IMG/VR virus record: IMGVR_UViG_3300036985_002287
Coordinates: 30,613 to 94,612 of that record
DNA length: 64,000 bases
Direction: 5' to 3' (one strand)
From: a virus
Taxonomy: Duplodnaviria > Heunggongvirae > Uroviricota > Caudoviricetes
Shown: positions 3,724 to 49,985 of the stretch, in pieces
Position numbering within the stretch: position 1 is the stretch's first letter
Layout of the letters: each line of letters starts with the position of its first letter
Program-made: the position numbers and the translations under genes
The notes under the pieces: generated by a model
Databases searched by the model: none
The model's input: the letters and a program-made list of their open reading frames with translations, nothing else
What the model was told of the DNA's origin: nothing

Positions 3724-3938
3724 TTTATTTTCCTTGCTGCCTGTGTTTTCCATCCCTCCAACCAGGCACACCATCTTGCTTGAGTCATTACATCTACAAA
3801 ATTTCTCAACAACTTCGGACCACCGTCTGGGCGTGGATCAACTATTAGTCTATCAGGAAACATAGAGCAATACTCGTTAAATGCCTTGCGGCATACCCTG
3901 AGTTCCTTTAATGATAAATCTGGAACATCTTCTTTCAT
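3720..3938 (-). CDS. hypothetical protein
   Basis: 72-aa ORF, ATGA-coupled to both neighbours. Confidence 0.4.
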   Translation of the reverse strand: MKEDVPDLSLKELRVCRKAFNEYCSMFPDRLIVDPRPDGGPKLLRNFVDVMTQARWCAWLEGWKTQAARKIK

Positions 3939-5332
3939 TCTTCAATCTCCACTTTTTCCGGCTTGATAGCAGCAGCGAACTGAGCTTCAACTTCTGCGAA
4001 ACTATCGGCAACCGTTTTGTCATCGCGGACCTCAATCAATCGTGGTAGGAACAGCGAGTGCTTCTTACCGGCCTTAGTGGAATACATAATACCATTAGAA
4101 CGAATGACAGCAATCTTGTTCATGTATTCGGCGCGGTTGTTATGTATTTCGTTCCGCAAATCATCTGGAATACCCGAAGCATTGACCAAAAGCAGGCCGC
4201 AGCTACTCTCACAGATAAGCGAACCAAATAAGTGAGCAAACTTATTTTTACCTGGTGTAAATCCTTTAATTTCAAGGTCGACGTCAACAACTTCCTTCTG
4301 CTTAACTTGATCTTTGCTTGTACCATCCTTCCAGATTGCGTGACGACTCTTACATACTGTGCCTTCCAACTTACGCCGACGAGCATCACGATAATGTGCA
4401 AGTGCTTCATCGGGAGAATAAACAATCTTTGTTTCAATCAGCTGGATCTGAATAACATCTGTACCTTGTAAGACAGGCTTCATTACCTGTTTTTCAAGCG
4501 AAATAAACCGTTCATGATAAGGAATATTATATTTGCCCTTAGAAACAAATTCTTCTAGCGGAATCTGATCCCAACAATCAAAAACGACCACCTCACCTTC
4601 GCCGAGCGACCCACCTTTGGAAACAGAATTCAAAATCCCATTTCCAATTTGGCGTTCCAACATCACACCGTTACGATACACAGTAAGTTCGCCATGTGTG
4701 CTCGTTCCGTGTGTAAATGTTTTCGCAGCATAATCTTCAATGCCGAGCGCATCCTGAGGCATTACTGTACCACCACGTGAGGTGATTTGAACAAATCCAT
4801 CCTTGCCGACATTCACATAAGCAAACATTCCGTCTGCTTTGATTTGTGAATACACACCTTCGGAATAGTCCCACTCTTCCATATTAGAAGATTCGGGCAA
4901 AGAGCAGCGCATATAAGGAGTGACAGGAATTTCGTAATCCTTGTTTACACCTTTGACAGCTTTGTTTACTGTGGATTCACTAAATCCAGAACCCAAGTCT
5001 TTGATAAGAATCTTGCGATACCAACCATTCCATTGATCATTAGTTGATCGCAGCATGGACATATTGATCGCATCCAGCGCCGCGTGACCTGTTAATACCC
5101 GTTTAGTCAAGCCAACAGCCAGCAGCTTAAACATGTCGAATGGCAATCCTGCTCCATCTGCACCGCTGCGGATAGGAACCTTCTTCACACCAAATGTATC
5201 GATGTTATCCAGCGCATAGCGCAAGCCGGCAAAGAATTCGGTATTGCCTGCCTTAGCTTCACGAGCAATAACACCCTGTTTGAAGAGTTTGCCATTGTCG
5301 GATGCGATTTCTGTAAGTAGTTGGTGTGTCAT
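3935..5332 (-). CDS. ATP-dependent DNA ligase
   Basis: Adenylation motif I KADGMFAYV (KxDG), 465 aa, size and layout like T4-type ligase. Confidence 0.85.
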   Translation of the reverse strand: MTHQLLTEIASDNGKLFKQGVIAREAKAGNTEFFAGLRYALDNIDTFGVKKVPIRSGADGAGLPFDMFKLLAVGLTKRVLTGHAALDAINMSMLRSTNDQWNGWYRKILIKDLGSGFSESTVNKAVKGVNKDYEIPVTPYMRCSLPESSNMEEWDYSEGVYSQIKADGMFAYVNVGKDGFVQITSRGGTVMPQDALGIEDYAAKTFTHGTSTHGELTVYRNGVMLERQIGNGILNSVSKGGSLGEGEVVVFDCWDQIPLEEFVSKGKYNIPYHERFISLEKQVMKPVLQGTDVIQIQLIETKIVYSPDEALAHYRDARRRKLEGTVCKSRHAIWKDGTSKDQVKQKEVVDVDLEIKGFTPGKNKFAHLFGSLICESSCGLLLVNASGIPDDLRNEIHNNRAEYMNKIAVIRSNGIMYSTKAGKKHSLFLPRLIEVRDDKTVADSFAEVEAQFAAAIKPEKVEIEE

Positions 5333-5808: not shown

Positions 5809-6015
5809 TTATTTTAATAATTCCAATCCAAGCCGTCTAATTTCAGCAATGTCTTCGTCACTGTATTTGTCTTCGTCAAACCAACCATAGAAACCCTGAT
5901 GTGTTACTTCATTATCCATCCAGCGTTCTATCTGACCATTTAAGAACACCCTGAAACAACCTTCGTCTGTATCGATATACGCAATCTTTTCTACAAACTT
6001 ACTAATAATTTTCAT
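5809..6015 (-). CDS. hypothetical protein
   Basis: 68-aa ORF. Confidence 0.4.
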   Translation of the reverse strand: MKIISKFVEKIAYIDTDEGCFRVFLNGQIERWMDNEVTHQGFYGWFDEDKYSDEDIAEIRRLGLELLK

Positions 6016-6218
6016 TTTACTTTCCTCGGTTTCGGGAAATATCCTTCGGCAAGGTCGTCAGTGATAGAATTCATAAAGCGTGTCATACTTTCGACATCGC
6101 CGTGTGCCTGGAAAAATTTCTTCTTGGCACCGTCGGCAAACCGTGTAACAGTGATATGAAGATACTTATCGATGTCTTCAGTAACTTCAAAATCAAACAG
6201 TGTCATTAATTTCTGCAT
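6012..6218 (-). CDS. hypothetical protein
   Basis: 68-aa ORF. Confidence 0.4.
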   Translation of the reverse strand: MQKLMTLFDFEVTEDIDKYLHITVTRFADGAKKKFFQAHGDVESMTRFMNSITDDLAEGYFPKPRKVK

Positions 6219-6651
6219 CTTCGGCCTTTAGTTTTCTAAGTCTCAGAACTTCTTTTGTTTCGCCCTTGCTCTTCTTACCATTGCAGGGAGAGCACATAAT
6301 TTGCGTATTGGTAAGATCGTCTGCACCACCCAATGCCCTTGCTTTGATATGATCATGAGTGAATAGAATCTCCTCACCATCACGTACACCATATAGGTTG
6401 AGGTGCCAGGAATCTTGTCCAGGAGATTGCTCCACAGCGAAGAATGTAGCTTCCAAATCGCAGCATACGCACTTCATACCTTTAGCACTCAATCCAGCAC
6501 GAGCAAATGTTCTCATACGGCGAGAGGATACACCTACCCAAATGCCGGATGATCGTTGGATACGGACTCGCTTTTCTTTCCAATGTGTTTTCACATAAGG
6601 AATAATTTCAGAAATGGGTATTACTTCGGATCGAAGGTATCTTTGTGTCAT
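6193..6651 (-). CDS. HNH endonuclease
   Basis: CCD...HDHIKARALGG...N...CSPCNGKKSK: HNH core with zinc-ligand Cys pairs. Confidence 0.7.
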   Translation of the reverse strand: MTQRYLRSEVIPISEIIPYVKTHWKEKRVRIQRSSGIWVGVSSRRMRTFARAGLSAKGMKCVCCDLEATFFAVEQSPGQDSWHLNLYGVRDGEEILFTHDHIKARALGGADDLTNTQIMCSPCNGKKSKGETKEVLRLRKLKAEDAEINDTV

Positions 6652-6809
6652 GCTACTATTATAACATAAGATATAGAAAAGACAAATAGGTAGCAGTCGC
6701 GAATGAAAAATTGTTAATCATTCCACTGCCTGTGCTTTGGTTCTTATGGGTTTAGGATGCTATTTTATAGCAGACGCCCGTAATCCTTTCGGATACCTGC
6801 CCTCACACC

Positions 6810-7697
6810 TTAAATTATATTCTTTGCAACAGAGTCCACGATTACTTTCATATGCTTCGGACCTATATCTACACTCTCCGAAAAATCAATTACGAAGTCT
6901 TTTCTTGTTAGTGGATCTTCGAGATATTCTTTAACTAATTTGTTCCAAAATACTAAATTTTCTTGTCGAGCATCTTTAGGAAGCACAATACAATACCCAT
7001 CTGCATCTTGCCATAGTGGATAAACTTTATTTAGAATAGGAACGAATTCCGAATCGTGTAAAGGTTTTCTATTGCTCAAAGCAAGTAATCGTAACTTTCC
7101 TGCATCTATCATCGGCTTTGCAAGTATCAACGGAAGTATAGCAACGTCGACATGACCACCCATTACATCTGTCATTAACGGTGCACCACCTTTATATGCG
7201 ACCAATGTGGGTGGCCGCCTTCCATTTTTAAGATCTGTAAACTTGAATAGTTCTTCCATTAGAATCTTTTGTGCTGGTGCTCCATAGCCAAATGATTTTT
7301 TGGTGTCTACTTTGCTCAACTCGTTTTGAACTTCTGACAACGATTGTAGGCTATTAGCAGACCCAGTTACAAGTGCAAAGATCGACGTTCTTATCATAGA
7401 TACATATTCAAATTGATAATTAGGGTTCTTATTTTGATAGACTGCTACAGTAGCCACAGTACCAAAACCGATTGTGCTGTCGTCGGCAGAAGCAACTTCT
7501 CCCATCCCTATTAAGCCGTCTGCACCACTTTTATAATTTGCAATAATATTGATTCCTCGTGAATCGGCATATTTTTGAAAATGTCGAAAGGCAATATCGG
7601 CGCCGCCGCCTGGCGGAAATGGTATAATGGCTTTATATGGGTCGGCGTGAGCAATGGCGCATATTAAAATTAACGCTGCGATTATAATTTTTCTCAT
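6810..7697 (-). CDS. TctC/Bug-family periplasmic solute-binding protein with signal peptide
   Basis: N-terminal signal peptide MRKIIIAALILICAIAHA; PFPPGGGADIAFR motif typical of the tripartite tricarboxylate transporter SBP family. Confidence 0.6.
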   Translation of the reverse strand: MRKIIIAALILICAIAHADPYKAIIPFPPGGGADIAFRHFQKYADSRGINIIANYKSGADGLIGMGEVASADDSTIGFGTVATVAVYQNKNPNYQFEYVSMIRTSIFALVTGSANSLQSLSEVQNELSKVDTKKSFGYGAPAQKILMEELFKFTDLKNGRRPPTLVAYKGGAPLMTDVMGGHVDVAILPLILAKPMIDAGKLRLLALSNRKPLHDSEFVPILNKVYPLWQDADGYCIVLPKDARQENLVFWNKLVKEYLEDPLTRKDFVIDFSESVDIGPKHMKVIVDSVAKNII

Positions 7698-8866
7698 GGT
7701 GTCTTATCGAACTGTCCTATGTTATAAAATCGAGAAAATATCGATTTTGTTGCAATTTTGTTACCTAGCGGATCTAAATCACAATACATGGCATCAATAT
7801 CATCCATCTCGGATGAATAATTATGGCGCCACGCTGCGATCGAATCTTTCAATTCTGGATGAGAATATAACCAGTAGTCCTTATCTTCTCTAAATACACT
7901 CTTAGGCTTCTCAGCCTGAAAGCGACTAAAATCCCAATCTTTATATATTATAGTACGAATAGCATGTTGCGCCAATTCTGCGGCAGCATGGGCTTGATCT
8001 TTTGTTTCTGTATCCCATTTTCTTTGAATGAGAGGTCTCATAGCAGGATTATTATTAAAATATTGGAATACTTGATAGGCCTGCTCGTACACTAATTCGG
8101 GCATATTGGGTGCCCAATAAAATAATTCTAATCCCTCTGTATTCTCGTGATAAGGTGTACTGACTGCAATTATACCATCATTAAATACCATACCAACATC
8201 ACCTTCGTCGTCGGCTACTACAATCGGTTTATCGACCCCCCATATCTCTGCAACCCGCTTACCTGCAGATAACCACTTTTTCTCGTTTTCGGAGAATGTC
8301 TGCATACGCATAAGATTTGCTGCCGAGTGCAGATGCTGTTGTGTTTCAAATAGTGAATCCTTAAAGTATTCAGGACTACATTTATCGACCCATTCGGCAA
8401 CTTCGATTTTTATTTCTGGATGATTTTGTGCAAGCCATTCCAGATCTTTTTTAATCACAAGATCCCATTCACTCATGAAATTGTAGGCGCTCTTGTCATC
8501 TGATCTGACCCGGTGTAGTGGTTGCGCCTTCATGGGCCAGCGAACAAATATACAATCCAGTTTTATATTATTTTTTAAGAAAGTATTCAGAACAGTCCAG
8601 CTATCGCTACCTCCACTGTAATATAACACGAGGTAATCATATGAATCCCTTATCTGTTGAGCTCTTTCTTTATATAATGTTTCTAACGGAGTTTTTCCTA
8701 ATATAGATTTATCGAAATTTAACCATGTATTAAAGAAATAGGAATAGTGTACCCGAGTTTTACTTTTCGATGCCTGCACTAATGCTTCGATCTTATTATA
8801 GTATTTTACATACTTCCCGGCATCATTCTGTGCCCACCATTCTCCATTCTTGTATAAATGTTTCAT
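7694..8866 (-). CDS. PP-loop (N-type ATP pyrophosphatase) superfamily protein
   Basis: SGGxDS P-loop (LYYSGGSDSWTV) after an ~80-aa N-terminal extension; 390 aa. Confidence 0.6.
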   Translation of the reverse strand: MKHLYKNGEWWAQNDAGKYVKYYNKIEALVQASKSKTRVHYSYFFNTWLNFDKSILGKTPLETLYKERAQQIRDSYDYLVLYYSGGSDSWTVLNTFLKNNIKLDCIFVRWPMKAQPLHRVRSDDKSAYNFMSEWDLVIKKDLEWLAQNHPEIKIEVAEWVDKCSPEYFKDSLFETQQHLHSAANLMRMQTFSENEKKWLSAGKRVAEIWGVDKPIVVADDEGDVGMVFNDGIIAVSTPYHENTEGLELFYWAPNMPELVYEQAYQVFQYFNNNPAMRPLIQRKWDTETKDQAHAAAELAQHAIRTIIYKDWDFSRFQAEKPKSVFREDKDYWLYSHPELKDSIAAWRHNYSSEMDDIDAMYCDLDPLGNKIATKSIFSRFYNIGQFDKTP

Positions 8867-10050
8867 TACGGTATAATCTCCACAAAATCGTATATTGATG
8901 CAGTAGTTACTAATTGTTTATCTTCTACCGATAATTTACTGAACCATTTTACTGGATCACCTTCTGCCATCCGTCTGCCTAAATATTTAACTAATTCGCA
9001 AACGGGCTCGACTACTTCTGTACGATAGCTATCATTCTTAAGGACATAAGCTATATGCAAATTCTTCATGCAGTTACCACGACACCATTCCACGGCTTCA
9101 CATCTATGGCATGGCATATCTGGATGCATCTGCAAAGGGCTATGTGTTAAAGTATTATCGGTAATGGAACCATGCTGCATATCGGGCACCCATGTCATAT
9201 CTGTACACGCAAATATTTTTCCATCAGGGCTTATATTAACTGCATTAGTTGAAGACCGACACTGTGCTTTACCCGAACATTGTGCAGCAGCCGCACCAGG
9301 CACCGCCATGTTACGCGCAATGCCCATTAATGGTACAATAGGGTAGACACCGTCATAGGAATAGAATCTATCTACCAATTGGTCGATCACTCGTTTTTTT
9401 GCTTCCATATGTTCGGGGTAATATACACCTTTTTGTTGAGCAAATTGAAAATGCACCCAATCAAATGTTTCTAATAATTTATCGAAAGCTTCAGAAGGTA
9501 AGTCTGGATCACACCAAGTAACTCTTGCAGTCAGTGTACCTGTTACCCTGGACTGTATTGCTCCTACATTTTTCATAATGTTAGCAAATACATTCTTACC
9601 ACGATACTTATTCGTTATTTGTTCGGTACCATCTATCGATATAAGGAAATTTGTAAAGCGTGATAGCACATCGTCATCTATTTTATTCAATAGTGTGCCA
9701 TTTGTTATAATTTGATATTCCGCAAAAGGAAACCGATCCATAACTTCTGTTATGAACGGCCTGTTCATTAACGGCTCGCCGCCAAAGAATGTGAAATAGA
9801 TATCCTTATCAGACAAGTGAGTATCAACAAATGTCTCTAATTCGTCTAAAGAATATGTAGGTTTTCCTTGAGATGAGAGAATATCTCCTTCGCCTAACAC
9901 ACAGTAAGAACAACTAAGATTGCACTTCAGTGTAGTAGATATCTGGATTTCAACTCTGTTACCACTAATTGCTGGCAGAATTACTGTATCCATGCTCTTT
10001 CTATTATCGATCAACTTCTGTTTTAATAAAATTTGCAAGTTTTGCAGCAT
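8866..10050 (-). CDS. radical SAM enzyme with C-terminal SPASM domain
   Basis: CNLSCSYC (CxxxCxxC) near the N-terminus; C-terminal Cys cluster (C...C...CTDM...CHRCEAVEWCRGNC) typical of SPASM/twitch auxiliary Fe-S clusters. Confidence 0.8.
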   Translation of the reverse strand: MLQNLQILLKQKLIDNRKSMDTVILPAISGNRVEIQISTTLKCNLSCSYCVLGEGDILSSQGKPTYSLDELETFVDTHLSDKDIYFTFFGGEPLMNRPFITEVMDRFPFAEYQIITNGTLLNKIDDDVLSRFTNFLISIDGTEQITNKYRGKNVFANIMKNVGAIQSRVTGTLTARVTWCDPDLPSEAFDKLLETFDWVHFQFAQQKGVYYPEHMEAKKRVIDQLVDRFYSYDGVYPIVPLMGIARNMAVPGAAAAQCSGKAQCRSSTNAVNISPDGKIFACTDMTWVPDMQHGSITDNTLTHSPLQMHPDMPCHRCEAVEWCRGNCMKNLHIAYVLKNDSYRTEVVEPVCELVKYLGRRMAEGDPVKWFSKLSVEDKQLVTTASIYDFVEIIP

Positions 10051-10216
10051 CCTCGGGAGATAGAATAAGTTCGGTCATCACCCGTTCATTAGTTGGATCT
10101 AATGCTGTATCGAATGTAGATAGGAATCGTAGTTGATATTCATTTGATCGAGGATTAGCATCACGCATCTCTACATAGACTGAATACGATCCGTTTGTAC
10201 TAAGAAGTTGTTTCAT
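10004..10216 (-). CDS. hypothetical small protein
   Basis: 70-aa ORF upstream of the radical SAM gene. Confidence 0.4.
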   Translation of the reverse strand: MKQLLSTNGSYSVYVEMRDANPRSNEYQLRFLSTFDTALDPTNERVMTELILSPEDAAKLANFIKTEVDR

Positions 10217-10413
10217 CGATCGCCTTCGAATGCGGCCTCCGCCGCCATTACTAAATTGTCATAACCGATGTCATACAATTCGGCAGGATCTAATTCATTC
10301 AGCTCTTCTTCTGTCATATCAAGTCCGTCGTCCCAGCAACCTTCTGTAGCATAGAAGCCATCATCCATGTCGCCTTCGACTACAACGCTATTCCAATCAA
10401 CTTCTTTACTCAT
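10213..10413 (-). CDS. small strongly acidic protein (D/E-rich)
   Basis: 66 aa, about 30% Asp+Glu; first gene of the rSAM operon. Confidence 0.45.
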   Translation of the reverse strand: MSKEVDWNSVVVEGDMDDGFYATEGCWDDGLDMTEEELNELDPAELYDIGYDNLVMAAEAAFEGDR

Positions 10414-10757: not shown

Positions 10758-10961
10758 CTATTTTGAAGAACTTGTATCTTGTTCTAATAATCGTTCTTCA
10801 TATTCTTCTTCGGTCAACGAGTGACTACCATTACAATAACCTGTGGTACTACGACCACATCCGCATGGTTGTTTGTGGTCTGTGCCAAAAATCATATCCC
10901 ATCTCTGCGAGTATTCCTCGTTAGAAACACTCCGGGGTCTTTGCTTACTTCCCTTACTCAT
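10758..10961 (-). CDS. hypothetical Cys-rich small protein
   Basis: 67-aa ORF with CGCGRS...C..SH pattern. Confidence 0.4.
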   Translation of the reverse strand: MSKGSKQRPRSVSNEEYSQRWDMIFGTDHKQPCGCGRSTTGYCNGSHSLTEEEYEERLLEQDTSSSK

Positions 10962-11053: not shown

Positions 11054-11138
11054 TGGTGCGGCTGGCCGGACTCGAACCGGCACACCTTTCGGCGAGAGAT
11101 TTTAAGTCTCTTGTGTCTACCAATTTCACCACAGCCGC
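11054..11138 (-). tRNA. tRNA-Leu (anticodon TAA), long variable arm, CCA encoded
   Basis: Manual cloverleaf: acceptor gcggctg/cagccgc, anticodon loop cuUAAaa, T-arm gccgg-ttcgagt-ccggc, 3' ACCA. Confidence 0.85.
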
Positions 11139-11168
11139 AGTATTCACTAATAAGTATTTATTATATAC

Positions 11169-11501
11169 TTATTCATAGTATATGTCAATATAGGCCAAGG
11201 CATCCATTTCTTCTTGCAGTGCAGTGGCAACGGATTCCTTCACACGCAGCGGATCATTAATCACAACTTCGCGAACCTTATTTGCGATCGAGTCGCGACC
11301 ATTTAGGTACGCAATTAGTCGACCGGATGCAATCGCTCGGCCAACCTTCTTATTGAATACATCAGTTGTATTACACCGAGCAATGGAAACAAGAACCTTA
11401 TTGTTATCGGCTGGCAGAATTGCAATTGTGGCGCCACCACGCGAACTCATTTCCATGTCCATGTTGAAGTACCGATAATGCATAAATTCTAGCTTATTCA
11501 T
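11169..11501 (-). CDS. hypothetical protein
   Basis: 110-aa ORF. Confidence 0.45.
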   Translation of the reverse strand: MNKLEFMHYRYFNMDMEMSSRGGATIAILPADNNKVLVSIARCNTTDVFNKKVGRAIASGRLIAYLNGRDSIANKVREVVINDPLRVKESVATALQEEMDALAYIDIYYE

Positions 11502-13813: not shown

Positions 13814-14014
13814 TTACTTAGCAGCTGAAGCAGGAGCGGCCTTCTTTGCAGCAACTTTCTTTGCTGGCTTCTTAGCAACCACAGTCTTCGTAGCTGCTGC
13901 TGGTGCTGCCGCTGCTGGTGCTGCCGCTGCTGCTGGTGCTGCCGCTGCTGCTGGTGTGGCAGCGAAGGCGCTGAATGCAAATGCCGTAACGATAAGGGCG
14001 ATAACATGTTTCAT
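13814..14014 (-). CDS. small secreted Ala/Pro-repeat protein with Lys-rich histone-H1-like tail
   Basis: Signal peptide MKHVIALIVTAFAFSAFA followed by (PAAAAA)n and KKPAKKVAAKKAAP; the underlying DNA is a gctgc(c/t)gctgctggtgc tandem repeat. Confidence 0.45.
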   Translation of the reverse strand: MKHVIALIVTAFAFSAFAATPAAAAAPAAAAAPAAAAPAAATKTVVAKKPAKKVAAKKAAPASAAK

Positions 14015-19915: not shown

Positions 19916-21055
19916 ATGAGACAGAATGTTTATATAATTTACGATAAGCAGACAGAATATGTTTGTGACAAGATTTGCAAGAAGTTAGATGTAGATGGAA
20001 AATTCATGTCTGAAAATTCCGAATTAACAACCGAAATTTTAGTATCGATAGCAAAGAATTGTAGCAGTAGATACTTCTATATTATTAAAACAGATAAAGA
20101 AATTATATTCGATAAATTTGATTTTTCATATATACCTAAGGTCGTAAAATGGGACAGAAATTATATTCATGTATGGAATAATGATACATCTGTGAGATTA
20201 TATGACTCTGTCGAAGTATTAGACGAACCCGAAATATTTAACGACACTGCACTAAAGAATGGTACAATTAAGATTAAAAATATTGCCGATAAGATATACA
20301 CATATCCGTATTTTGATATAATATTTTTAAGCTACGACGAAGAATATAGCGATGCAAACTATAAGAAATTATTAGATAGATTTCCTAAGGCAAAAAGATT
20401 ACACGGAGTAAAAGGTATCTTGAAGGCTCATAAGATGGCGGCCCGTCTGGCAGAGACCGATATGTTTTATATTATTGATGCCGATGCTGAAATCGTATCT
20501 ACATTTGATTTTTCATACCAACCACAGTCACTCGAAAGGCAATCTGTTCATGTCTGGTACTCGCATAATCCAGTTAATGATTTGGAATATGGGTATGGTG
20601 GCGTAAAATTATTTCCCACACTTGGATTAATAAGATATATAGGTTCTCCCGTAGACTTTACTACCACCGTATCTAAGAGTCTTGTTGTAAAAGAGGAAGT
20701 TAGCAATATCACCCGATTTAACACAGATCCTTTTTCAGCCTGGAGAAGTGGTTTTAGAGAGTGTGTGAAATTAGCATCTAAGATAATACCTAATCATAAT
20801 AATGAAGAAACGGAATACAGATTAAATGAGTGGTGTACTAAGGGAGCAGATAGAGAATTTGGAGAATTTACTATTAAGGGTGCAGTCGAAGGTGCTGTAT
20901 ATGGTAAAATGTTTAGCACTCGCCCTGAACGGCTCTCGATGATAAATGATTTTGCATGGTTAGAAGATAGATTTAGTAGAAATATTAAAATTGTTAAATG
21001 GGATTGGTCCCGTAAAACAAACAAAACATTGACAAAAGACTGTTCCGATTCTTAA
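19916..21055 (+). CDS. hypothetical protein, the only large plus-strand gene; AT-rich; possible nucleotide-sugar-transferase-like fold (DAD motif)
   Basis: 379-aa ORF on the opposite strand to all neighbours with lower GC and K/N/I/Y-rich composition; YIIDADAEIV resembles a GT-A DxD motif (weak). Confidence 0.5.
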   Translation: MRQNVYIIYDKQTEYVCDKICKKLDVDGKFMSENSELTTEILVSIAKNCSSRYFYIIKTDKEIIFDKFDFSYIPKVVKWDRNYIHVWNNDTSVRLYDSVEVLDEPEIFNDTALKNGTIKIKNIADKIYTYPYFDIIFLSYDEEYSDANYKKLLDRFPKAKRLHGVKGILKAHKMAARLAETDMFYIIDADAEIVSTFDFSYQPQSLERQSVHVWYSHNPVNDLEYGYGGVKLFPTLGLIRYIGSPVDFTTTVSKSLVVKEEVSNITRFNTDPFSAWRSGFRECVKLASKIIPNHNNEETEYRLNEWCTKGADREFGEFTIKGAVEGAVYGKMFSTRPERLSMINDFAWLEDRFSRNIKIVKWDWSRKTNKTLTKDCSDS

Positions 21056-30440: not shown

Positions 30441-30711
30441 CCTCTGGGTTTAACAGTTGAAAACAAAAATACTCCTCGCAATCGCTGCCAGGATCTCTCT
30501 TTTCTTTATGCAGGCGACACCAACCATCGCCGGTGTAGCAACCTTCAGCATCACCGTTGAAGTTATAGTAAGCACAGTGGTCACAGCAAGTGAACCCTGG
30601 AGCGCAATCAGGACATAGTTTCATTTCATTTCCACATTGTGGCTCCGCACTTGGTGCAATCATACGCAGTATCATTATGTCCATGACCAGCAAAACGCCA
30701 ATAGTGTTCAC
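30418..30711 (-). CDS. Cys-rich small protein of the ...EPKHE junction group
   Basis: 97 aa, 12 Cys (CPDCAPGFTCCDHC...), ends VEPKHE. Confidence 0.45.
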   Translation of the reverse strand: MNTIGVLLVMDIMILRMIAPSAEPQCGNEMKLCPDCAPGFTCCDHCAYYNFNGDAEGCYTGDGWCRLHKEKRDPGSDCEEYFCFQLLNPEGVEPKHE

Positions 30712-31357: not shown

Positions 31358-32602
31358 TTACTTAGAAGTCTTGCCCTTAGTGACAGACATATCAATACCA
31401 AGTTCTCGCGCAGTCTTAGCAGTGAGCATTTCAACAAGAGCAGCAGCACCGTTTCCGCCTTGGGCACTATTACCCATCACTACACTCGGAACCCAAGCGC
31501 CTTGATATTCACCCATTGCAGTTGCATAAGCCTTTGATACAGTTACATACGCTTCCAGCTTTGCATCCAAAGCACCGTCCGCGTTCATTCGCAGAGACTT
31601 TGCTTGTGCATCACCTTCACCACGAAGAATTTGTTCCTTCTTGTATTGTTCAGCAGCCTTTGCACCTAGCGTTGCCACAGCCACAGCCTTTTCAGCGAAA
31701 GCAATTTCCTTGGCATTCAGTGTTTCTTGTTCCCACTTTGCCTTAGCCGCAGTTGCCTTACCTTGTTGCTCAGTTGTGATCGCATCTTGTTCAGCTTTCT
31801 TTGCGTTGGCGATAGAGATTTGAACACCAGTTGTTGACTGTTGACGTTGCTTGATCTGGTCTTCAACGATCTGGTCGTACTTGATTTCGTTGATTGAGAC
31901 CGGCTGTAAAATGATGCCATACTTCGTAATCTGGGATTCAGATTCACGCATCGGCTGACCCTTGTCATTCATTGCAATCTGCACCACAGCCACTTGCTTA
32001 TCAGCACCAGTGATCGGATCCTTCTGCGTGACTGTGACAGTCTTTGTCAGATACGGACCGTGAATCAACTGATCGTCAATGTACTTCGGAATCTCAGGAC
32101 GCTTTTCAGCCGATGATTCAGTTGAACTCATTGTGGGTCCGACGTTGTAAATAACTTTCTGCATCGCCGGGCGAATCAATTGCTGCTCAATGGCGCCGAC
32201 TGATCCAAAGTCCTTGTGAAGCGCCACGATCTGTTCGTGCTTCAACGGCATCTGCCAGTTCACTGTTCCGGAGATGTTACCGTGACCACCGTCATTGAAG
32301 CGAGTGGAGATTGATTCATCAGTCGTTTTTCCCTGATCTTTCACGGAACTAAACGAGAACTGATCACGCCGTTGATACGTTGTAACTTTGCCGAACGCCT
32401 GGGCTTTCCAACCGGGTTCAGTAAAAGTATTCAGATCGCCGCCAAGTGCCTGAATCACCATGAGGTTCTTCGCATCAAGATTTTCCACCAGCATTGGCAG
32501 ACATATCAGAAGTGCGAAAAATGCAAGCCCTGATAGAGCGCCGACTAGAATTCGGCGCGGGGTAATTGTGGGGGTGTTCATGTAGTTTTTCCTTGGTAAC
32601 AT
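31358..32602 (-). CDS. SPFH/band-7 (HflK/C-, stomatin-like) domain membrane protein
   Basis: N-terminal TM anchor, central SPFH-like region and Ala/Lys/Glu/Gln-rich coiled-coil tail typical of HflK/HflC-type proteins. Confidence 0.6.
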   Translation of the reverse strand: MLPRKNYMNTPTITPRRILVGALSGLAFFALLICLPMLVENLDAKNLMVIQALGGDLNTFTEPGWKAQAFGKVTTYQRRDQFSFSSVKDQGKTTDESISTRFNDGGHGNISGTVNWQMPLKHEQIVALHKDFGSVGAIEQQLIRPAMQKVIYNVGPTMSSTESSAEKRPEIPKYIDDQLIHGPYLTKTVTVTQKDPITGADKQVAVVQIAMNDKGQPMRESESQITKYGIILQPVSINEIKYDQIVEDQIKQRQQSTTGVQISIANAKKAEQDAITTEQQGKATAAKAKWEQETLNAKEIAFAEKAVAVATLGAKAAEQYKKEQILRGEGDAQAKSLRMNADGALDAKLEAYVTVSKAYATAMGEYQGAWVPSVVMGNSAQGGNGAAALVEMLTAKTARELGIDMSVTKGKTSK

Positions 32603-43437: not shown

Positions 43438-44340
43438 TTATGCCATGCTTACATATAAATGCTGTTGTAGGTTCAGCTTGAATCCATGATCAAGACAGTA
43501 TTTACCTGTGTATTCGTGATTACGTTGATTTTCTACTAAGTTTAATAATCCAGGTTCCCAGAAAGAAATTACCTCATCTACTGTAGATCGTTCTGCCATT
43601 GTGATCTCACCTTTCTCTGCTCGAAGTAATTTAATCTTCTGCGGAAAGTCATTATATACATTCATAGGGGAACAATAGATTTCTTTCTCCGGATTAAGTC
43701 TTTTCCATTCGTGTGCCCATTCCGGGACTGTGCTATATGGACTTACCGGGTCCGCACTCATTACAAACTTAAGGCAGTCGGCCCGCTTAAGAATCATATC
43801 AGTCGGTGCTAAATACTTTGTTGCTACACCGTTCTTTTCCGAACACTTGGGAGAACATACAACAGTGACGTGACTGGCTATATATGGATTGCTTATTGTG
43901 CCATTAGTTTCGATTTGAATTGCCTTAAATACCGGTTCAACACTATCCATAAAACCTAATAAATTAGATTGCAACATCGGCTCGCCACCCGTGATAACTA
44001 AGACAATGTTCGGCCAATGGAAGCTTGGCTGTGGCCGAGGGAAACGAGTCATTGCCCACTCCGGCGGCACTTCTGGCGGTGTCCGTGTAGCCCAATAATT
44101 ACGAATAGTATCAAATGCCTTATGCTGAATTTCATCATATGTCATCCATGTACCGTCATCAAAGAAAGTATCGCAGAAAGAACATGCTAGGTTACACTTT
44201 GCTAATCTGATGAATAGTGCAGGTAGACCAGCATAGGGTCCTTCTCCTTGCAACGTAAAGAACATACTTGTAACATACAAGCTGCCTTTAGGTGCTTTAT
44301 CAAAAAATTTCTTGCCAATTATTGTATTAGTTCCGAACAT
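43438..44340 (-). CDS. queE: 7-carboxy-7-deazaguanine synthase QueE (radical SAM)
   Basis: MFFTLQGEGPYAGLPALFIRLAKCNLACSFCDT, VLVITGGEP and QIETNGT are near-identical in spacing to E. coli QueE motifs (FQTLQGEG...CxxxCxxCDT...ITGGEP...QIETSGT). Confidence 0.85.
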   Translation of the reverse strand: MFGTNTIIGKKFFDKAPKGSLYVTSMFFTLQGEGPYAGLPALFIRLAKCNLACSFCDTFFDDGTWMTYDEIQHKAFDTIRNYWATRTPPEVPPEWAMTRFPRPQPSFHWPNIVLVITGGEPMLQSNLLGFMDSVEPVFKAIQIETNGTISNPYIASHVTVVCSPKCSEKNGVATKYLAPTDMILKRADCLKFVMSADPVSPYSTVPEWAHEWKRLNPEKEIYCSPMNVYNDFPQKIKLLRAEKGEITMAERSTVDEVISFWEPGLLNLVENQRNHEYTGKYCLDHGFKLNLQQHLYVSMA

Positions 44341-44520
44341 TATTCTTTATCCTCGAATTTAACAAGTTTAACTCTGACGCCTTCAAATTCATTATCGAAC
44401 GCAACAGTGACAACTTCCAAAACTTCTTCACAGCCTGTTACGCCACGATCATTTATGTCATTCCAGAACTCATCATCGCCTTCTTCTATAACAAATTCGA
44501 ATATGTATCTTTTCATATAT
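44341..44520 (-). CDS. small acidic hypothetical protein (59 aa)
   Basis: Own translation MKRYIFEFVIEEGDDEFWNDINDRG...; ATGA-coupled to queE. Confidence 0.35.
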
Positions 44521-44576
44521 AGTCCTTATCTGTTATTATAGCGATTTTCGATATGTAAGTCAAGTCACCTATCGAA

Positions 44577-44900
44577 TTATACACCAGATGAGTCGCCCCA
44601 TGTATGCATATATTTAGATAGTCTTATCATCTTATTAACACGGGCTTTTTCTATACCAGAAGCGGTAACACCGAGATTCGCGTTAGTAACCATATCTACC
44701 AACGCCAATACATCTCCTAATTCCATTTCTAAATTTTCAAGATTAGTTGTTGTAGAAGCAGGGTTCTTACCCACTACACCAAATCGTTTAATTTTAGATG
44801 CTGCCTGAATTACTTCGGCACATTCTTCCTGAAGAATATTAAGACATTCTTCCTGATGATCATTTACTTGTTTCAAATTTTTTCTCCCAATTCCATGCAT
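44577..44900 (-). CDS. putative MazG-like nucleotide pyrophosphohydrolase
   Basis: all-alpha, ECLNILQEECAEVIQA resembles the MazG EExxE metal-binding helix; weak. Confidence 0.35.
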   Translation of the reverse strand: MHGIGRKNLKQVNDHQEECLNILQEECAEVIQAASKIKRFGVVGKNPASTTTNLENLEMELGDVLALVDMVTNANLGVTASGIEKARVNKMIRLSKYMHTWGDSSGV

Positions 44901-45828
44901 GTGATATAATATCTTTTATATTATATTGAGGTTCCCAATGTAATATATTCTTAGCCTTATCTATACATGCCGTCAATATTGCAGGATCTCCTTTGCGAGG
45001 TGCAACATATTCATATATAGGCTCTTTACCAACTACTTCACCTGCATATTTAACTAGCTCTGTTAAACTTATGCCACCGGTACCACCACCTAAGTTAAAT
45101 ATTTCATTACTGAAACCGGCATTAAGGAATTCTATCGCCTGTACGTGACCTTCTGCTAAGTCAGACACATGAATATAGTCCCTAACACAAGTTCCGTCTT
45201 TTGTAGCATAGTTGTTACCGAATATTTGAAATACTTCATTATTCATTATTTTATTACATATAATAGGAATAACATGAGTAGCAGGGCGCTGTGTATATCC
45301 GAATCGACATTCTGGATCAGCACCTGCGGCATTAAAATATCTAAATGTGATATACTTGATACCATATGCTCTTGCATAATCCCTGATCATTAATTCTCCT
45401 GCTGTCTTTGACGATGCATAGGAATTTTCTGGATCATAATACATATCTTCTTTTAGATATAGAGCTCTGCCTTGCCTACCATATAAATTTCCGGTAGAAC
45501 TAAAGACGATATTTTTTATGCCTATAGCGACCATATGATCGAGCATAACCTGCATTTTTACCACATTATTCGTGTAATATTTAGCCGGCTCTGACAGGCT
45601 TTGCGGCACAATATGCTCCGCTGCCAGATGCACTATTGTATCAAATTTAGTTGTATTTGTTTTAATGAAGTCACAATAATCTGATTCAATAACTTCGCCT
45701 GGACCATTCCAGTTCTGTGTATTCTTATCCACAATAGTAATTTTGTGACCTTCTTCGTGTAATTTATATACTACTTGCGTACCTATAAATCCACAGCCTC
45801 CGGTAACTAGAATATTATGTCTTCTCAT
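44860..45828 (-). CDS. galE: UDP-glucose 4-epimerase (GalE family)
   Basis: VTGGCGFIGT, YASSK, and C-terminal blocks IFGNNYATKDGTCVRDYIHVSDLAEGHV / APRKGDPAIL closely matching E. coli GalE. Confidence 0.85.
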   Translation of the reverse strand: MRRHNILVTGGCGFIGTQVVYKLHEEGHKITIVDKNTQNWNGPGEVIESDYCDFIKTNTTKFDTIVHLAAEHIVPQSLSEPAKYYTNNVVKMQVMLDHMVAIGIKNIVFSSTGNLYGRQGRALYLKEDMYYDPENSYASSKTAGELMIRDYARAYGIKYITFRYFNAAGADPECRFGYTQRPATHVIPIICNKIMNNEVFQIFGNNYATKDGTCVRDYIHVSDLAEGHVQAIEFLNAGFSNEIFNLGGGTGGISLTELVKYAGEVVGKEPIYEYVAPRKGDPAILTACIDKAKNILHWEPQYNIKDIISHAWNWEKKFETSK

Positions 45829-46202
45829 TAGTTGGGAAAATATTCTAATATTCCACCATTAATATTATCTTCGTAAATCTCTACCTTAATGTATCTACCT
45901 TCATACCTGTATCGAATTTTATCGATAAGCTGTTCTGCTAACATCTCACAGCTCATATAGTCCATTTTTAGTTCTTCCACATATAAGGATTCCAGCCATC
46001 GTCTAAACTGAATGAATTCTATATCACGATTGTTCTGGAATACTTCCACAGTTACAACAAAGTAAAAATAGTGGAAGTGTTCGTGTCCTAAGAAAGATAC
46101 ATCATCCCACTTACCCGTCTTTAAGGTAGGATCTGTTAATGCTTCCGGATACCTATGTGTACCTTCTTTAGTAAATTTTACGTTTATATATCGCTTAATC
46201 AT
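45828..46202 (-). CDS. QueD/PTPS-like (6-carboxy-tetrahydropterin synthase family) protein
   Basis: KFTKEGTHRYPE and LGHEH resemble QueD FTFEAAHRLP and LHGHS zinc-ligand motifs; about 120 aa like QueD. Confidence 0.45.
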   Translation of the reverse strand: MIKRYINVKFTKEGTHRYPEALTDPTLKTGKWDDVSFLGHEHFHYFYFVVTVEVFQNNRDIEFIQFRRWLESLYVEELKMDYMSCEMLAEQLIDKIRYRYEGRYIKVEIYEDNINGGILEYFPN

Positions 46203-46353
46203 ACAATCTCTTCGATAATACCTAATATCTCTGCAACTACAATCATTGTACCTGCAAAAAACAGATTTCCTGCAGCAAGACTACATCCTGCCACAATGCG
46301 TAATGCGCTCTTAACGAAACTAATTCGTTGATGTAATTTAGGATCTGGCTGTC

Positions 46354-47142
46354 TCATTTCTTAGCCTTTACTGTTTTCGGTTCTTTCGCAGATAGCGGGT
46401 CTTTCGTAGTACCAGCCGTATATGCTTCAACTGCATCATTAGTAGTCTGAATAGTACTCGTTTTGATGGTCTGGATTTGCGTTTCTTCATCTTCCGGTTT
46501 CAGTTGTGATTTAGCGTCTGGATCAAGTCCTAACTCTGCTTGATTCTTTACATCGCTCAATGGCTTATTTAGCGCCTGTTTGGGCTGCTCTGTTGTAATA
46601 ATAACATCATCTACATATTCACTCCAACTTGTGAAGCGATTGCTATCCGTTACTTCATGATGATTCATACACCATACACCGGGATTTGTTGCACCAAAAT
46701 TAATATCATCAATCTTAATTGTTAAATTAATGTTGGATGTATTTACGTGTGGAATTGCAACACTGAGCACCGGTACAAAGTTTCTGGATTGCCATACATC
46801 CTGATTCAAAATATTAAGTACCATAGCATGTTTATGTGCTGGATAATCTAAAGATACCATAAATCCTGCATTAAGCAAGAACAAGATTTGTTTATCCCAA
46901 TCAGAAGCCAGTGTGTTACCGACCATATACTTTCCGTTTACCATGTCGACAGAATCAAAAGATCTGTTAGCACTCAAGAAGATGTGCTTGACTCCATACT
47001 TTTTAGCATGATCCAAGATAGTTTGTGTATCTTGTAGTCCTACCACAAATAATGTCTTCTTGTTAAATGCAGGTGTCTGCTCAATTTCGGGGCCTACAAA
47101 AAATGTTACGCCTTCATGACCTTTTCTTACAAATTCGCTCAT
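46354..47142 (-). CDS. hypothetical protein
   Basis: 262-aa ORF in the sugar/deazaguanine cluster. Confidence 0.45.
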   Translation of the reverse strand: MSEFVRKGHEGVTFFVGPEIEQTPAFNKKTLFVVGLQDTQTILDHAKKYGVKHIFLSANRSFDSVDMVNGKYMVGNTLASDWDKQILFLLNAGFMVSLDYPAHKHAMVLNILNQDVWQSRNFVPVLSVAIPHVNTSNINLTIKIDDINFGATNPGVWCMNHHEVTDSNRFTSWSEYVDDVIITTEQPKQALNKPLSDVKNQAELGLDPDAKSQLKPEDEETQIQTIKTSTIQTTNDAVEAYTAGTTKDPLSAKEPKTVKAKK

Positions 47143-47143
47143 A

Positions 47144-48232
47144 TTATTTCCTTAATAATTGGTTTATTAAACCGTATGCTGTGAAGTATTCCTTCAGTAA
47201 ATGCGGGGCCAACCTGCCCTTAGTATCCTTACTAATAATATCATATTGACCCATAGTATTCTTTATCAAAGTTATAATATCGGTCTTATGTTTATAATAG
47301 TTTTCCATGCTACTTGTCCACTCATCTGGATATAAGTATCTTACGTCATACATCTCACTATAACTCAATCTATCAGGTAATAAAGGTATGACACCTAGTA
47401 ATGCACCTTCGAACGGACTTATACCTAATGTTTCTTGTAAATTAGCCGACCACATAATCTTCGACTTAGCTAATAATTTATGATATTCTTGCTTTGTTAG
47501 CTTATTATCCTGGCACACAACAAATTTATACTCGGGTAGTGATTCTGCCAGATCTCTAAATATCTCTACCTGCTTTTCGGGTGCAAGACGATGCGGGAAA
47601 ATAATGATATCTTCTTTTTCGCTAGTATCATATTCCTTAAACAGGTCGGGCATATATTCCATAGGCCATCCGGTGCCTATAATTTTCTTCGACTGAATAT
47701 CATCCAGCATATTGGTACCTAACAGATTCAACATAAACATCTCTATGTGAAAATCCGTAGCAAAATAATTATGATCGAATGAATGGTAGAAGCTACGCTC
47801 TGCATTTCTTACCCACGCAGCAGGTCCTATCAATCTGCCCAGGAAATCGTATGCATCATAACTTCCTGCATGCCACATTCCGTGCAGTGTCCAATTATGC
47901 CCCAACAAGTCATTCATATATCTTAGTTGAACAACAGTGGGATTCCACGCATCTGTAAATAAAAAATGATCGTCGGGTGTTACCTTACCGCTATTATAGA
48001 ATTCTATCCAGTTACACAACTGCGAACTTTTCCAATAATTAGTATCCGAGAAGTTTAAGAACGCACCCGGAGTGACTTGTGTATTTTTTTGAATTCCATC
48101 CACTTGAACAATGTTGAATTTATGTCCGCATTGTTTTTCTAACATAGCAGGAACACGACTGTGCCATTGTCCCGTATATCGCGTCTCTATGGGCTCTATA
48201 CTAAAAATCCAGATTGTCGGTTTTACTTCCAT
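47144..48232 (-). CDS. glycosyltransferase (GT-B fold, GT1/GT4-like)
   Basis: C-terminal E..G....EG..LG.IPL motif typical of GT-B nucleotide-sugar transferases. Confidence 0.5.
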   Translation of the reverse strand: MEVKPTIWIFSIEPIETRYTGQWHSRVPAMLEKQCGHKFNIVQVDGIQKNTQVTPGAFLNFSDTNYWKSSQLCNWIEFYNSGKVTPDDHFLFTDAWNPTVVQLRYMNDLLGHNWTLHGMWHAGSYDAYDFLGRLIGPAAWVRNAERSFYHSFDHNYFATDFHIEMFMLNLLGTNMLDDIQSKKIIGTGWPMEYMPDLFKEYDTSEKEDIIIFPHRLAPEKQVEIFRDLAESLPEYKFVVCQDNKLTKQEYHKLLAKSKIMWSANLQETLGISPFEGALLGVIPLLPDRLSYSEMYDVRYLYPDEWTSSMENYYKHKTDIITLIKNTMGQYDIISKDTKGRLAPHLLKEYFTAYGLINQLLRK

Positions 48233-49125
48233 TCAATATATCCTCTAGAATAATTTTGCGGCCTATTAAGCCCCTCATCAAATGCTAGTTTAACTTCTGT
48301 CTCCCTATCATATGACTTTGTCCATAACCCGCTTACATCCAAATCGCCATATCTTAGCAGTTCTTCTGCTAATACCATTGCACTGTAGAATGATTCGTTT
48401 CTCGGACTTGGAAACTTCACATCCACTGCGTTCCAGAGGAACTGTGAGAACGATGTTACTGCTGGCGGATGCTTTTCTGCAGCAAGTACAATTGTAGCAC
48501 GTTCCTTATAAACATTCAAGTTTAGATACTCTGGTTTATCAGATAAGTCTATGATATATTCGAAGCCTTTATTCTGGACATCTTTTAATTGTTTTACTTC
48601 TGCATTATTCTGTTTTGACCAGAAATCTTTGTTGGCTTCGCCGACTACAACTACTTTATTTTCCCAATATCTATCGAGTATTGTATAAACAACTGTTGCT
48701 AAAAATCCTGTACCTAACAATAAAATATCTGCATTTGTAGTCGGCACTATACTCTTTGCAATGTTAATGCCGCAAGCGATAGGTTCTAAAATAAATCTAG
48801 GATTACAATCAGGCACCTTAACAAACATCTTATCCGGGCAGTTATAATAATCAGCAAATGCTGGTTCTCCGCGAGTACCAACATAGTCGCCTTCCTTAAC
48901 AGTTGATATATCTTTACCTACCTTAGTAACTACACCCAGACTTTCGTGTCCTTGTATAGTCTTGGGTAGCATCTGAAATGTACCACAATACATATCGATG
49001 TCAGAACGACAAACACCTGTATAGATAGACTTTACTTCGATCTCATTTGATTTGGGTTCAGGTTTATTCCATTCTTCCTCTATGATGTCTTTGTTGCCTG
49101 TAGTATAGAAAAGTCTTGTCTTCAT
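48223..49125 (-). CDS. zinc-dependent medium-chain dehydrogenase/reductase
   Basis: GVCRSD and GHESLG zinc-ligand motifs of the MDR/ADH family. Confidence 0.7.
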   Translation of the reverse strand: MKTRLFYTTGNKDIIEEEWNKPEPKSNEIEVKSIYTGVCRSDIDMYCGTFQMLPKTIQGHESLGVVTKVGKDISTVKEGDYVGTRGEPAFADYYNCPDKMFVKVPDCNPRFILEPIACGINIAKSIVPTTNADILLLGTGFLATVVYTILDRYWENKVVVVGEANKDFWSKQNNAEVKQLKDVQNKGFEYIIDLSDKPEYLNLNVYKERATIVLAAEKHPPAVTSFSQFLWNAVDVKFPSPRNESFYSAMVLAEELLRYGDLDVSGLWTKSYDRETEVKLAFDEGLNRPQNYSRGYIEWK

Positions 49126-49985
49126 TAAAATCTCTCCAAAAATCTATGAATTTCTAAATCCAATGAATAGCTATCGGATGTATTTGTTAACATTTTACCG
49201 TATGCTTCTGCGGGACATAATCCAAACACCCATTCATATGTTGTGCCGTCTTTAAAATACAAAGTGATAGATTGTTTATCATACCCTTCTTTCCATGCGG
49301 CATATAATTTTACAGAAATTCCGTCTATTGTTGCAATTGCAAATGCTGTATCATCTACGTCATATACACCGTTAGGATAAACTGTTCCATAATCTGTAGA
49401 AGAGATTGACGAGAGATCCCATCTCTGATAACTAGATTGTTTAAATACCGATTTCTTTACAGTATCTTCACCAAATAATTTTACAGCAAAACAATACAGG
49501 TGTGGCATTAAATCTCGGGAGATACCTCCAAAGGAAGAATCCTTATCTGTAAACCAACTACCGGGATTAGGAATACGATTATCATTTATCCAATTAATGT
49601 CGACGCCTATTACTTTTTTGCTTCGCATTAATTCCAATACATCGCCATAACTATCTCTGTACAAGTTATTTTTTACTAAATGGAATGTTGTGTTGGTATA
49701 CTTATATTTAAGTCGACTCCATGCCCATGAATCTACAAGGCCCGGCTTCTCTACGAAGATTTGTTTTGTACCTGTCTCTGCCAATCTTTCTGCGATAGGT
49801 CCGTGCGTAAAATTGGGTGTACAAATTACTGCTATATCGTATGCTTTGTTGATTTCCGATGCATCTTTATATATCGCATTATCTGTTCTTGCATCTAATA
49901 CATCTATATCATAACCTAACTTTTGTAATTCGGGCCAATAGACGTTAGCGCCTATTCCACCGAACCCTGCCAATAATGCCTTCAT
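49125..49985 (-). CDS. Gfo/Idh/MocA-family NAD(P)-dependent oxidoreductase
   Basis: N-terminal GFGGIG Rossmann motif and EKP motif (FVEKPG). Confidence 0.6.
   Translation of the reverse strand: MKALLAGFGGIGANVYWPELQKLGYDIDVLDARTDNAIYKDASEINKAYDIAVICTPNFTHGPIAERLAETGTKQIFVEKPGLVDSWAWSRLKYKYTNTTFHLVKNNLYRDSYGDVLELMRSKKVIGVDINWINDNRIPNPGSWFTDKDSSFGGISRDLMPHLYCFAVKLFGEDTVKKSVFKQSSYQRWDLSSISSTDYGTVYPNGVYDVDDTAFAIATIDGISVKLYAAWKEGYDKQSITLYFKDGTTYEWVFGLCPAEAYGKMLTNTSDSYSLDLEIHRFLERF

Follow-up and report, generated by a model that had tools for sequence, protein, structure and literature searches.

The window analysed here is a stretch of 64,000 nucleotides from a virus of the class Caudoviricetes (positions 30,613 to 94,612 of the IMG/VR record IMGVR_UViG_3300036985_002287), in which five minus-strand genes form a tight array at positions 6810-10413: two small open reading frames (ORFs), p66 and p70, a radical S-adenosylmethionine (radical-SAM) enzyme with a SPASM domain (rSAM), a PP-loop protein related by its predicted fold to asparagine synthetase B (ASN), and a putatively exported solute-binding protein of the TctC/Bug family (TctC). 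The robust unit of this array is the pair formed by ASN and TctC, a conserved and co-evolving two-gene phage cassette, and the array as a whole is a mosaic, composite structure.

A first-pass annotation had described the five genes as one translationally coupled operon, which could mature one of its small peptides or make a modified nucleobase or cofactor. All five ORFs are found where that annotation had placed them, and most of the coupling stands as well, with a shared ATGA overlap at the p66/p70 junction, a 1-nt overlap between rSAM and ASN and a 4-nt overlap between ASN and TctC. The p70/rSAM overlap, on the other hand, is doubtful. The true start of rSAM is more likely the ATG at 9993 than position 10050, because an AAAGAG sequence lies 4 nt upstream and the homology to orthologues begins there; with this start, p70 and rSAM would lie 10 nt apart and would not overlap.

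A conserved pair of a PP-loop protein and a binding protein

The linkage of the two genes was followed through loci fetched for comparison, which carry L-numbers below; genes in these loci were called simply as ORFs, and clustering used arbitrary thresholds. Of 72 dereplicated loci, 43 have a TctC gene no more than 5 kb from ASN, and in 36 the two are adjacent; TctC is the immediate neighbour of 41 of the 102 ASN genes, against an expectation of ~6% (P = 4e-23). Thirty-nine pairs are co-directional, in both orders (27 and 12) and mostly with 4-nt overlaps. Moreover, ASN and TctC co-diverge (mirror-tree r = 0.62, Mantel p ~5e-4; mean identities of ~32% and ~22%). Paralogues of ASN are also seen, 2-4 per phage and often in tandem, together with up to three copies of TctC (L008, positions 5856-9312; L046, L047 and L075).

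The PP-loop of ASN, with the sequence SGGSDS (S84-S89, encoded at 8600-8617), is invariant among 38 homologues, in which the invariant signature takes the form SGGxDS and no cysteine is invariant or nearly so. The AlphaFold2 (AF2) model of the protein (predicted local distance difference test score of 93.9) has a PP-loop fold corresponding to that of the synthetase domain in asparagine synthetase B (AsnB), preceded by ~60 residues forming a small beta-hairpin and a helix. The invariant motif and the modelled fold together bear out the earlier description of a PP-loop ATPase, including its AsnB-like option, and ASN is predicted to be a stand-alone AsnB-type PP-loop synthetase-domain protein. 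Some PP-loop families use cysteine-dependent chemistries, and the lack of a conserved cysteine in ASN argues against sulfur-transfer, PAPS (3'-phosphoadenosine 5'-phosphosulfate)-reductase or QueC-type chemistry. A grouping with PAPS reductases, which the first-pass annotation had set against its own proposal, is not what we find, since PAPS reductase, like QueC, LarE, TilS and NadE, covers only a core of ~150 residues in the structural match. Like the AsnB class, ASN has an SGGxDS PP-loop within a synthetase-domain fold; it differs from AsnB, beta-lactam synthetase, carbapenam synthetase and TsnB9 in lacking an N-terminal nucleophile (Ntn) glutaminase domain, in its low identity to the class (8-10%) and in giving no match to Asn_synthase or to PDB sequences. 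By sequence, ASN has no significant match in Pfam (Asn_synthase PF00733 included), NCBIfam, PHROGs, PADLOC or the PDB, even when a profile built from the 38 homologues is used.

Relatives of ASN occur in 438 IMG/VR contigs, and the family comprises 1,690 representative clusters at 50% identity. In contrast, neither ASN nor TctC had a tblastn match in deposited phage genomes (50,697 genomes in the case of ASN), and every one of the best viral structural matches of ASN in BFVD is annotated as "uncharacterized protein". The family appears to be phage-restricted in the data covered.

With regard to TctC, the protein matches the Pfam TctC family (PF03401) with an E-value of 1.4e-14 and 54.7 bits (threshold 27), its best PDB sequence matches include 2dvz (1e-14) and Bug27 (2qpq, 7e-12), and the two signature segments PFPPGGGAD and YKGGAP...D..GG are both present. 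Its N-terminus (MRKIIIAALILICAIAHA, with the boundary before D; encoded at 7644-7697) is read as a Sec-type signal peptide, and a crude hydropathy test detects an N-terminal hydrophobic signal in 61 of 65 phage TctC homologues. The family match, the signal and both segments agree with the first description of a TctC/Bug-type binding protein carrying a signal peptide. The phage TctCs are short proteins (283-308 aa) that group in a clade of their own, a large gap in score setting them apart from cellular Bug proteins, and the residues kept among them (G30, G31, K56, G58, A59, Y168, K169 and D177) are only the Bug ligand-binding signatures. From these features TctC is predicted to be an exported Bug/TctC-family solute-binding protein of a phage-type clade.

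The radical-SAM enzyme and its mosaic surroundings

The third enzyme of the array shows the CxxxCxxC motif (C43/C47/C50, encoded at 9901-9924) and a complete 7-Cys SPASM motif (C264, C282, C314, C317, C323, C327 and C351, encoded at 8998-9261), all of these cysteines being invariant among 21 homologues. Matches to Pfam Radical_SAM (2e-10) and to the NCBIfam SPASM domain TIGR04085 (36 bits, cutoff 27) corroborate the earlier assignment of a radical-SAM protein with a C-terminal SPASM cluster. The named NCBIfam families, however, all score far under their cutoffs (TIGR04084, 138 against 225 bits; PapB, 85 against 340, 5e-24; the anaerobic sulfatase-maturating enzyme, anSME, TIGR03942, 68.1 against 349.45), and the best-scoring ones include peptide maturases such as PapB. 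A recognition element (RRE) for ribosomally synthesized and post-translationally modified peptides (RiPPs), or a PqqD-like region, had been proposed as a thing to look for, and it is absent from rSAM by alignment, AF2 model and neighbourhood scan: the core begins as early as residue 34 (residue 14 when counted from the likely start), CteB and 8vpo have no aligned counterpart in rSAM before their residues ~105-111, the N-terminus is modelled as a low-confidence helix, and there is no PqqD match nearby. The closest structural match is anSME (4k36), with 16% identity and the same RRE-less combination of radical-SAM and SPASM domains. The grouping with sulfatase maturases, which had been set against a peptide substrate, is in this way found for structure and architecture, but not for the sequence score. 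No sulfatase or C/S-x-P/A-x-R target was seen among the scanned window proteins or the bacterial neighbourhoods, whole genomes being outside this search. A viperin-like defence role was also considered and dropped, as the similarity is limited to the generic radical-SAM core.

Full-length orthologues of rSAM, with 46-51% identity, are present in at least 80 bacterial species, and 556 pattern-matched bacterial stretches encode a relative. Nearly all the orthologues belong to Betaproteobacteria (e.g. Gallionella, Aromatoleum, Noviherbaspirillum, Sulfuritalea, Uliginosibacterium and Rubrivivax), and at least five IMG/VR phage contigs carry one. The bacterial gene is solitary, lying next to ftsEX in Azoarcus and to gyrB in Ferrigenium, and 80 bacterial loci show no conserved neighbour, the recurring ones reflecting lineage synteny only; neither a Bug gene nor a small conserved gene is adjacent. 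This solitary condition indicates that the enzyme needs no neighbouring partner in cells.

In phages, the surroundings of rSAM are mosaic. Homology (blastn) to the syntenic locus L009 runs from window position 9982 through rSAM to 8866, breaks off with the rSAM stop codon and picks up again with the HNH gene at 6665; for L009 and L011 the homology ends at 8866 and 8864 and restarts at 6665 and 6666, respectively. The intervening 2.2 kb with ASN and TctC have no counterpart in L009, L011-type phages carry an unrelated reverse-strand gene in the same slot, and in a contig whose rSAM is 92% identical to that of the window the gene is followed directly by HNH-68-68 genes, with no ASN-TctC. Across the window, L009, L011 and the P0121 contig, the slot is either empty or occupied by ASN-TctC, a 180-aa gene or a 108-aa gene on the reverse strand, and every syntenic relative keeps the HNH gene in its place, which suggests that the slot beside it is a recombination hot spot. 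Three phage lineages that share the synteny of the window keep rSAM and lack ASN-TctC, and in the 103-kb contig 3300000203_000004 ~15 kb separate an rSAM gene (63% identity) from an ASN-TctC pair.

On the other hand, one further lineage, L204-206, has all three genes, within the block rSAM7-SPASM-ASN-TctC-PP2-183aa-PP3, where a nucleotide identity of 68% continues unbroken across the rSAM/ASN junction (protein identities of 73%, 58% and 56%) and a sliding-window comparison with L204 shows no recombination breakpoint inside the rSAM gene. In L208 the SPASM gene is followed directly by TctC, PP3 genes neighbour rSAM in L209 and L213, and rSAM7 and B12-rSAM genes do so in L175. In 7 of 10 phage lineages, a count taken over few lineages and not corrected for phylogeny, rSAM lies among genes of the same accessory islands (rSAM7, PP3, ASN, TctC or B12-rSAM within a few genes). 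An initial view of rSAM and ASN-TctC as simply independent modules was softened after the L204-206 trio and these other contexts were considered. As for the co-conservation on which the first-pass annotation had made its proposal depend, it is strong for ASN and TctC, but outside the window the three genes together occur only in L204-206, and the three syntenic lineages do without ASN-TctC.

The islands around ASN are rich in putative tailoring enzymes, with Pfam matches above or near threshold to fatty-acid desaturase-like, radical-SAM, Rieske, P450, Asp/Arg hydroxylase, PhyH, ATP-grasp, Amidohydro_2 and DctP-like families; an aminotransferase-like assignment is a weak, sub-threshold match only. 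Their radical-SAM proteins belong to two families, B12-rSAM (~490 aa, named for its N-terminal region) and rSAM7. PP2 is a distant relative of ASN (hhalign probability of 95.6% over 206 columns), and PP3 shares the PP-loop region alone. About 100 ASN loci lack the rSAM family of the window.

Readings of the array

The reading we tentatively favour is that of a composite array, in which a carboxylate-capture and amidation cassette (ASN-TctC) stands beside an autonomous rSAM and the lineage-specific p66 and p70, and not that of a single peptide-maturation operon. The phage TctC would be secreted to the periplasm, where it would capture a carboxylate-bearing solute and pass it to a host TctAB permease for import. 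ASN would then spend ATP in adenylating the imported carboxylate and form an amide with ammonia or another amine, a conversion that would trap or change the solute to the benefit of the phage. Like its solitary bacterial orthologues, which presumably work in this way too, the rSAM enzyme would most likely act alone, with a host protein or metabolite as its substrate, and would be found beside the cassette because both belong to the same pool of accessory-island genes. The idea of capture followed by amidation follows a bacterial precedent, that of orphan Bug genes adjoining an enzyme that consumes the imported carboxylate (PMC5812351).

Several observations weigh against this picture. Only gene adjacency ties ASN, a cytoplasmic enzyme, to a binding protein of the periplasm, no TctA or TctB was found among the window ORFs scanned, so that host permeases must be assumed, and the mirror-tree correlation is possibly inflated by shared phage phylogeny. 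Some ASN subclades pair with non-binding proteins, namely P450 cassettes, aminotransferase-like genes and ATP-grasp ligases, and those never paired with TctC have P450 cassettes or aminotransferase-like genes as partners. One such cassette, ASN-c10-c5-P450-c5-c17, combines a cytochrome P450 with three families lacking assignment and occurs in L005 (9071-10213) and 10 other loci; its ASN subclade is never adjacent to TctC. In L047 and L075, a gene for a DctP-like protein of the tripartite ATP-independent periplasmic (TRAP) type (6481-7476 and 3930-4928, respectively) separates ASN from TctC, and an Amidohydro_2 gene comes after it. This arrangement had been taken as support for periplasmic capture and was weakened as such, since these proteins have no signal peptides, as is also the case for the homologues of L048 (17383-18330) and L090 (13687-14676), and are a poor fit to that role. 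Finally, the L204-206 block with its homologous junction, together with the island contexts in 7 of 10 lineages, leaves room for a coupling of rSAM to ASN-TctC.

Such a coupling is the basis of an alternative that we consider unlikely, in which a single three-enzyme pathway would produce a phage-specific metabolite, cofactor or modified nucleobase from a carboxylate imported by TctC, tailored by rSAM and amidated or ligated by ASN. The contiguous trio of L204-206, with its identity unbroken at the junction, the succession of rSAM and TctC in L208, the proximity of rSAM to island families and the abundance of tailoring enzymes in these islands all speak for it. However, the syntenic lineages that keep rSAM without ASN-TctC, the ~100 ASN loci without this rSAM family and the solitary bacterial orthologues point the other way, and clustering in accessory islands need not imply a common pathway. 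A broader version, to which we give somewhat less credence still, would join ASN-TctC, rSAM and the remaining island genes for PP-loop, radical-SAM and oxygenase proteins in a modular phage "capture and build" pathway, which would hijack host permeases of the tripartite tricarboxylate transporter (TTT) type and amidate or tailor the imported precursor. Possible precursors are N-heterocyclic acids, e.g. nicotinate, quinolinate or orotate, and possible products are a phage-specific metabolite, a cofactor or a component of the nucleotide pool, as in NAD or nucleotide replenishment. Two published articles (PMC11452294, PMC5812351) report that Bug/TRAP proteins bind N-heterocyclic acids such as these three.

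At the opposite extreme, the genes could be unrelated cargo gathered in a hot spot near the HNH gene, with TctC serving by itself in uptake or exclusion and ASN being an unrelated enzyme. The differing contents of the rSAM-HNH slot among relatives and the highly mosaic islands fit this idea, but the frequency of ASN-TctC adjacency, its occurrence in both orders and the co-divergence of the two proteins are hard to explain without selection for linkage, which makes it improbable.

Even less probable, in our opinion, is a modification of TctC itself before export, by which rSAM and/or ASN would introduce a crosslink, an amidation or a protein-derived cofactor. Parallels exist in the action of anSME on sulfatases and of QhpD on QhpC, and the RRE-less anSME-like structure of rSAM, its position directly before TctC in L208 and the translational coupling and co-divergence of ASN and TctC would be in keeping with it. 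Phage TctCs, however, keep only generic Bug signatures, no further Cys, Ser or acidic site being conserved, and the translation of the window TctC shows only one Cys in the mature part and lacks a C/S-x-P/A-x-R motif. Besides, an rSAM gene is missing from the vicinity of most ASN-TctC pairs, ASN subclades take other partners, and no Bug gene adjoins the rSAM orthologues of bacteria.

The small ORFs bear on the remaining alternative. The description of p66 as strongly acidic is accurate (21 D+E against 2 K+R, and a single Cys), and its ORF is preceded by an AGGAG ribosome-binding site. Among the fetched loci, copies of p66 (97% identical) are confined to L009 and L010; the P0121 contig has a 66-aa gene in the same position, a match by place and size whose homology is unconfirmed, and p66 was found in no other phage or bacterial rSAM locus. 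For its part, p70 contains no Cys and sits within a 232-bp segment (9983-10214) that is specific to the window and has no counterpart in L009; it gave no tblastn match among 204 fetched loci. No family match was obtained for p66 (Pfam, NCBIfam, PHROGs and PADLOC being among the libraries scanned) or for p70 (Pfam, NCBIfam and PHROGs), and in L011-type phages an unrelated ORF occupies the small-ORF position upstream of rSAM. Judged by this distribution, p66 and p70 are probably lineage-specific small ORFs and very unlikely substrates of the array. RiPP tailoring is a classic task of SPASM enzymes and AsnB-like cyclases, and a RiPP-type operon maturing p66 and/or p70 could call on these affinities, on the tightly coupled ORFs immediately upstream and on the presence of PapB among the best named families, but it appears largely refuted by the comparative data and has very little probability left: no adjacent precursor gene is co-conserved across the 204 fetched and 80 bacterial loci, p70 has no homologues and p66 only those of the nearest relatives, L011-type phages carry an unrelated ORF, rSAM has no RRE, the two peptides hold one Cys between them, and every peptide-maturase model scores far under its cutoff. 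The maturation of adjacent small peptides put forward by the first-pass annotation is accordingly not supported. A further small protein of the window (67 aa, 10758-10961, minus strand) has an N-terminus (MSKGSKQRP...) similar to the 26 residues with which the fused rSAM ORF of L204 begins (L204 positions 2105-2182), and a homologous small gene is also present in L009.

Genomic setting and significance

The window contains genes for a DNA polymerase, a T4-type ligase, an exonuclease, an endolysin, HNH proteins and a Lon-like protease, as well as three tRNAs. Its phage origin is supported by the DNA polymerase, T4-type ligase, endolysin, HNH and tRNA genes, and it corresponds to the replication/early region of a large, uncultured and novel phage; the ligase is 42% identical to that of Pseudomonas phage hairong, and a megablast search of the region against the 50,697 deposited phage genomes gave no nucleotide match.

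Positions in the window of the genes of the array, the adjoining variable slot and the members of a second accessory cluster
Feature	Position	Strand	Remarks
p66	10213-10413	minus	66 aa; ORF call
p70	10004-10216	minus	70 aa; ORF call
Radical-SAM/SPASM enzyme (rSAM)	8866-10050	minus	394 aa; likelier start 9993
ASN (putative AsnB-type PP-loop protein)	7694-8866	minus	390 aa
TctC/Bug solute-binding protein (predicted)	6810-7697	minus	295 aa
ASN-TctC cassette, variable slot between rSAM stop codon and HNH gene	6666-8865	minus	2.2 kb; blastn breakpoints
Promoter-like site	6685-6658	minus	near HNH gene
HNH endonuclease gene flanking the variable slot	6193-6651	minus	Pfam HNH 3e-7; PHROG HNH families
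Weak radical-SAM match	43438-44340	minus	second accessory cluster
NAD-dependent epimerase/dehydratase	44860-45828	minus	Pfam 1.5e-48
ADH_N protein	48223-49125	minus	second accessory cluster
GFO/IDH/MocA oxidoreductase	49125-49985	minus	second accessory cluster

Apart from the array, the minus strand holds a second accessory cluster of sugar-nucleotide type (43438-49985), which also includes two genes without family assignment. A perfect sigma-70 consensus (TTGACA-17-TATAAT, 11160-11188, minus strand) lies just upstream of a tRNA-Leu gene (11054-11138), with tRNA-Met and tRNA-Arg genes near it. A 66-aa ORF at 13814-14014 (minus strand) combines an N-terminal signal-like segment with Ala/Pro repeats and a Lys/Ala-rich tail. 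The sole long plus-strand ORF (19916-21055, 379 aa) coincides with the lowest-GC stretch (~0.355) and a flip in GC skew; it has no Pfam or PHROG match, and homologues are present in six fetched phage loci. An SPFH/Band-7 protein (31358-32602) and the Lon-like ATP-dependent protease (61080-63296; phrog_4871, 8e-245) are also encoded on the minus strand.

When set beside known systems, each part of the array has a recognizable relative from which it departs. Cyanophage PstS, the product of an auxiliary metabolic gene, is a phage-encoded exported phosphate-binding protein that feeds a host transporter, and the TctC of the window would likewise be an exported binding protein supplied by the phage to a host permease; it differs in belonging to the TTT and not to the ATP-binding cassette (ABC) type, in its presumed carboxylate substrate and in the tight pairing of its gene with a dedicated enzyme. 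The rSAM protein is like anSME in its RRE-less architecture, but its low identity and score, together with the solitary, housekeeping-style condition of its bacterial orthologues, set it apart; from the RiPP maturases CteB, PapB, ChlB and TigE it is distinguished by the lack of an RRE and of a co-conserved precursor gene, and by scores under every cutoff. Orphan Bug/TctC proteins of Betaproteobacteria, for instance those of arylmalonate decarboxylase (AMDase) clusters (PMC5812351), share with the phage protein the TTT-family export and signatures, the absence of an adjacent TctAB and a gene placed beside that of a cytoplasmic enzyme, whereas the TctC of the window is phage-encoded, belongs to the short clade and is partnered by an uncharacterised PP-loop synthetase. 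No description of a phage TTT/Bug clade paired with an AsnB-like enzyme was found in the literature, PHROGs, Pfam or PADLOC, and the earlier remark that no phage system with this trio had been described holds for deposited phages, PHROGs, PADLOC and the searchable literature. All the components come from known superfamilies, and what appears undescribed is the ASN family and its co-evolving partnership with a phage Bug protein.

A last question to consider is what these genes mean for phage biology. The ASN family is large and yet missing from deposited phage genomes, which points to a substantial blind spot in phage annotation. The ligand of TctC would reveal a resource for which phages compete during infection, and it would also give a new functional context to the Bug proteins, the majority of which lack an assigned function. 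The betaproteobacterial rSAM/SPASM family poses a separate question, one that is genetically approachable in cultured Aromatoleum, Azoarcus and Rubrivivax. A "capture and build" pathway, if true, would represent a new class of phage metabolic module.

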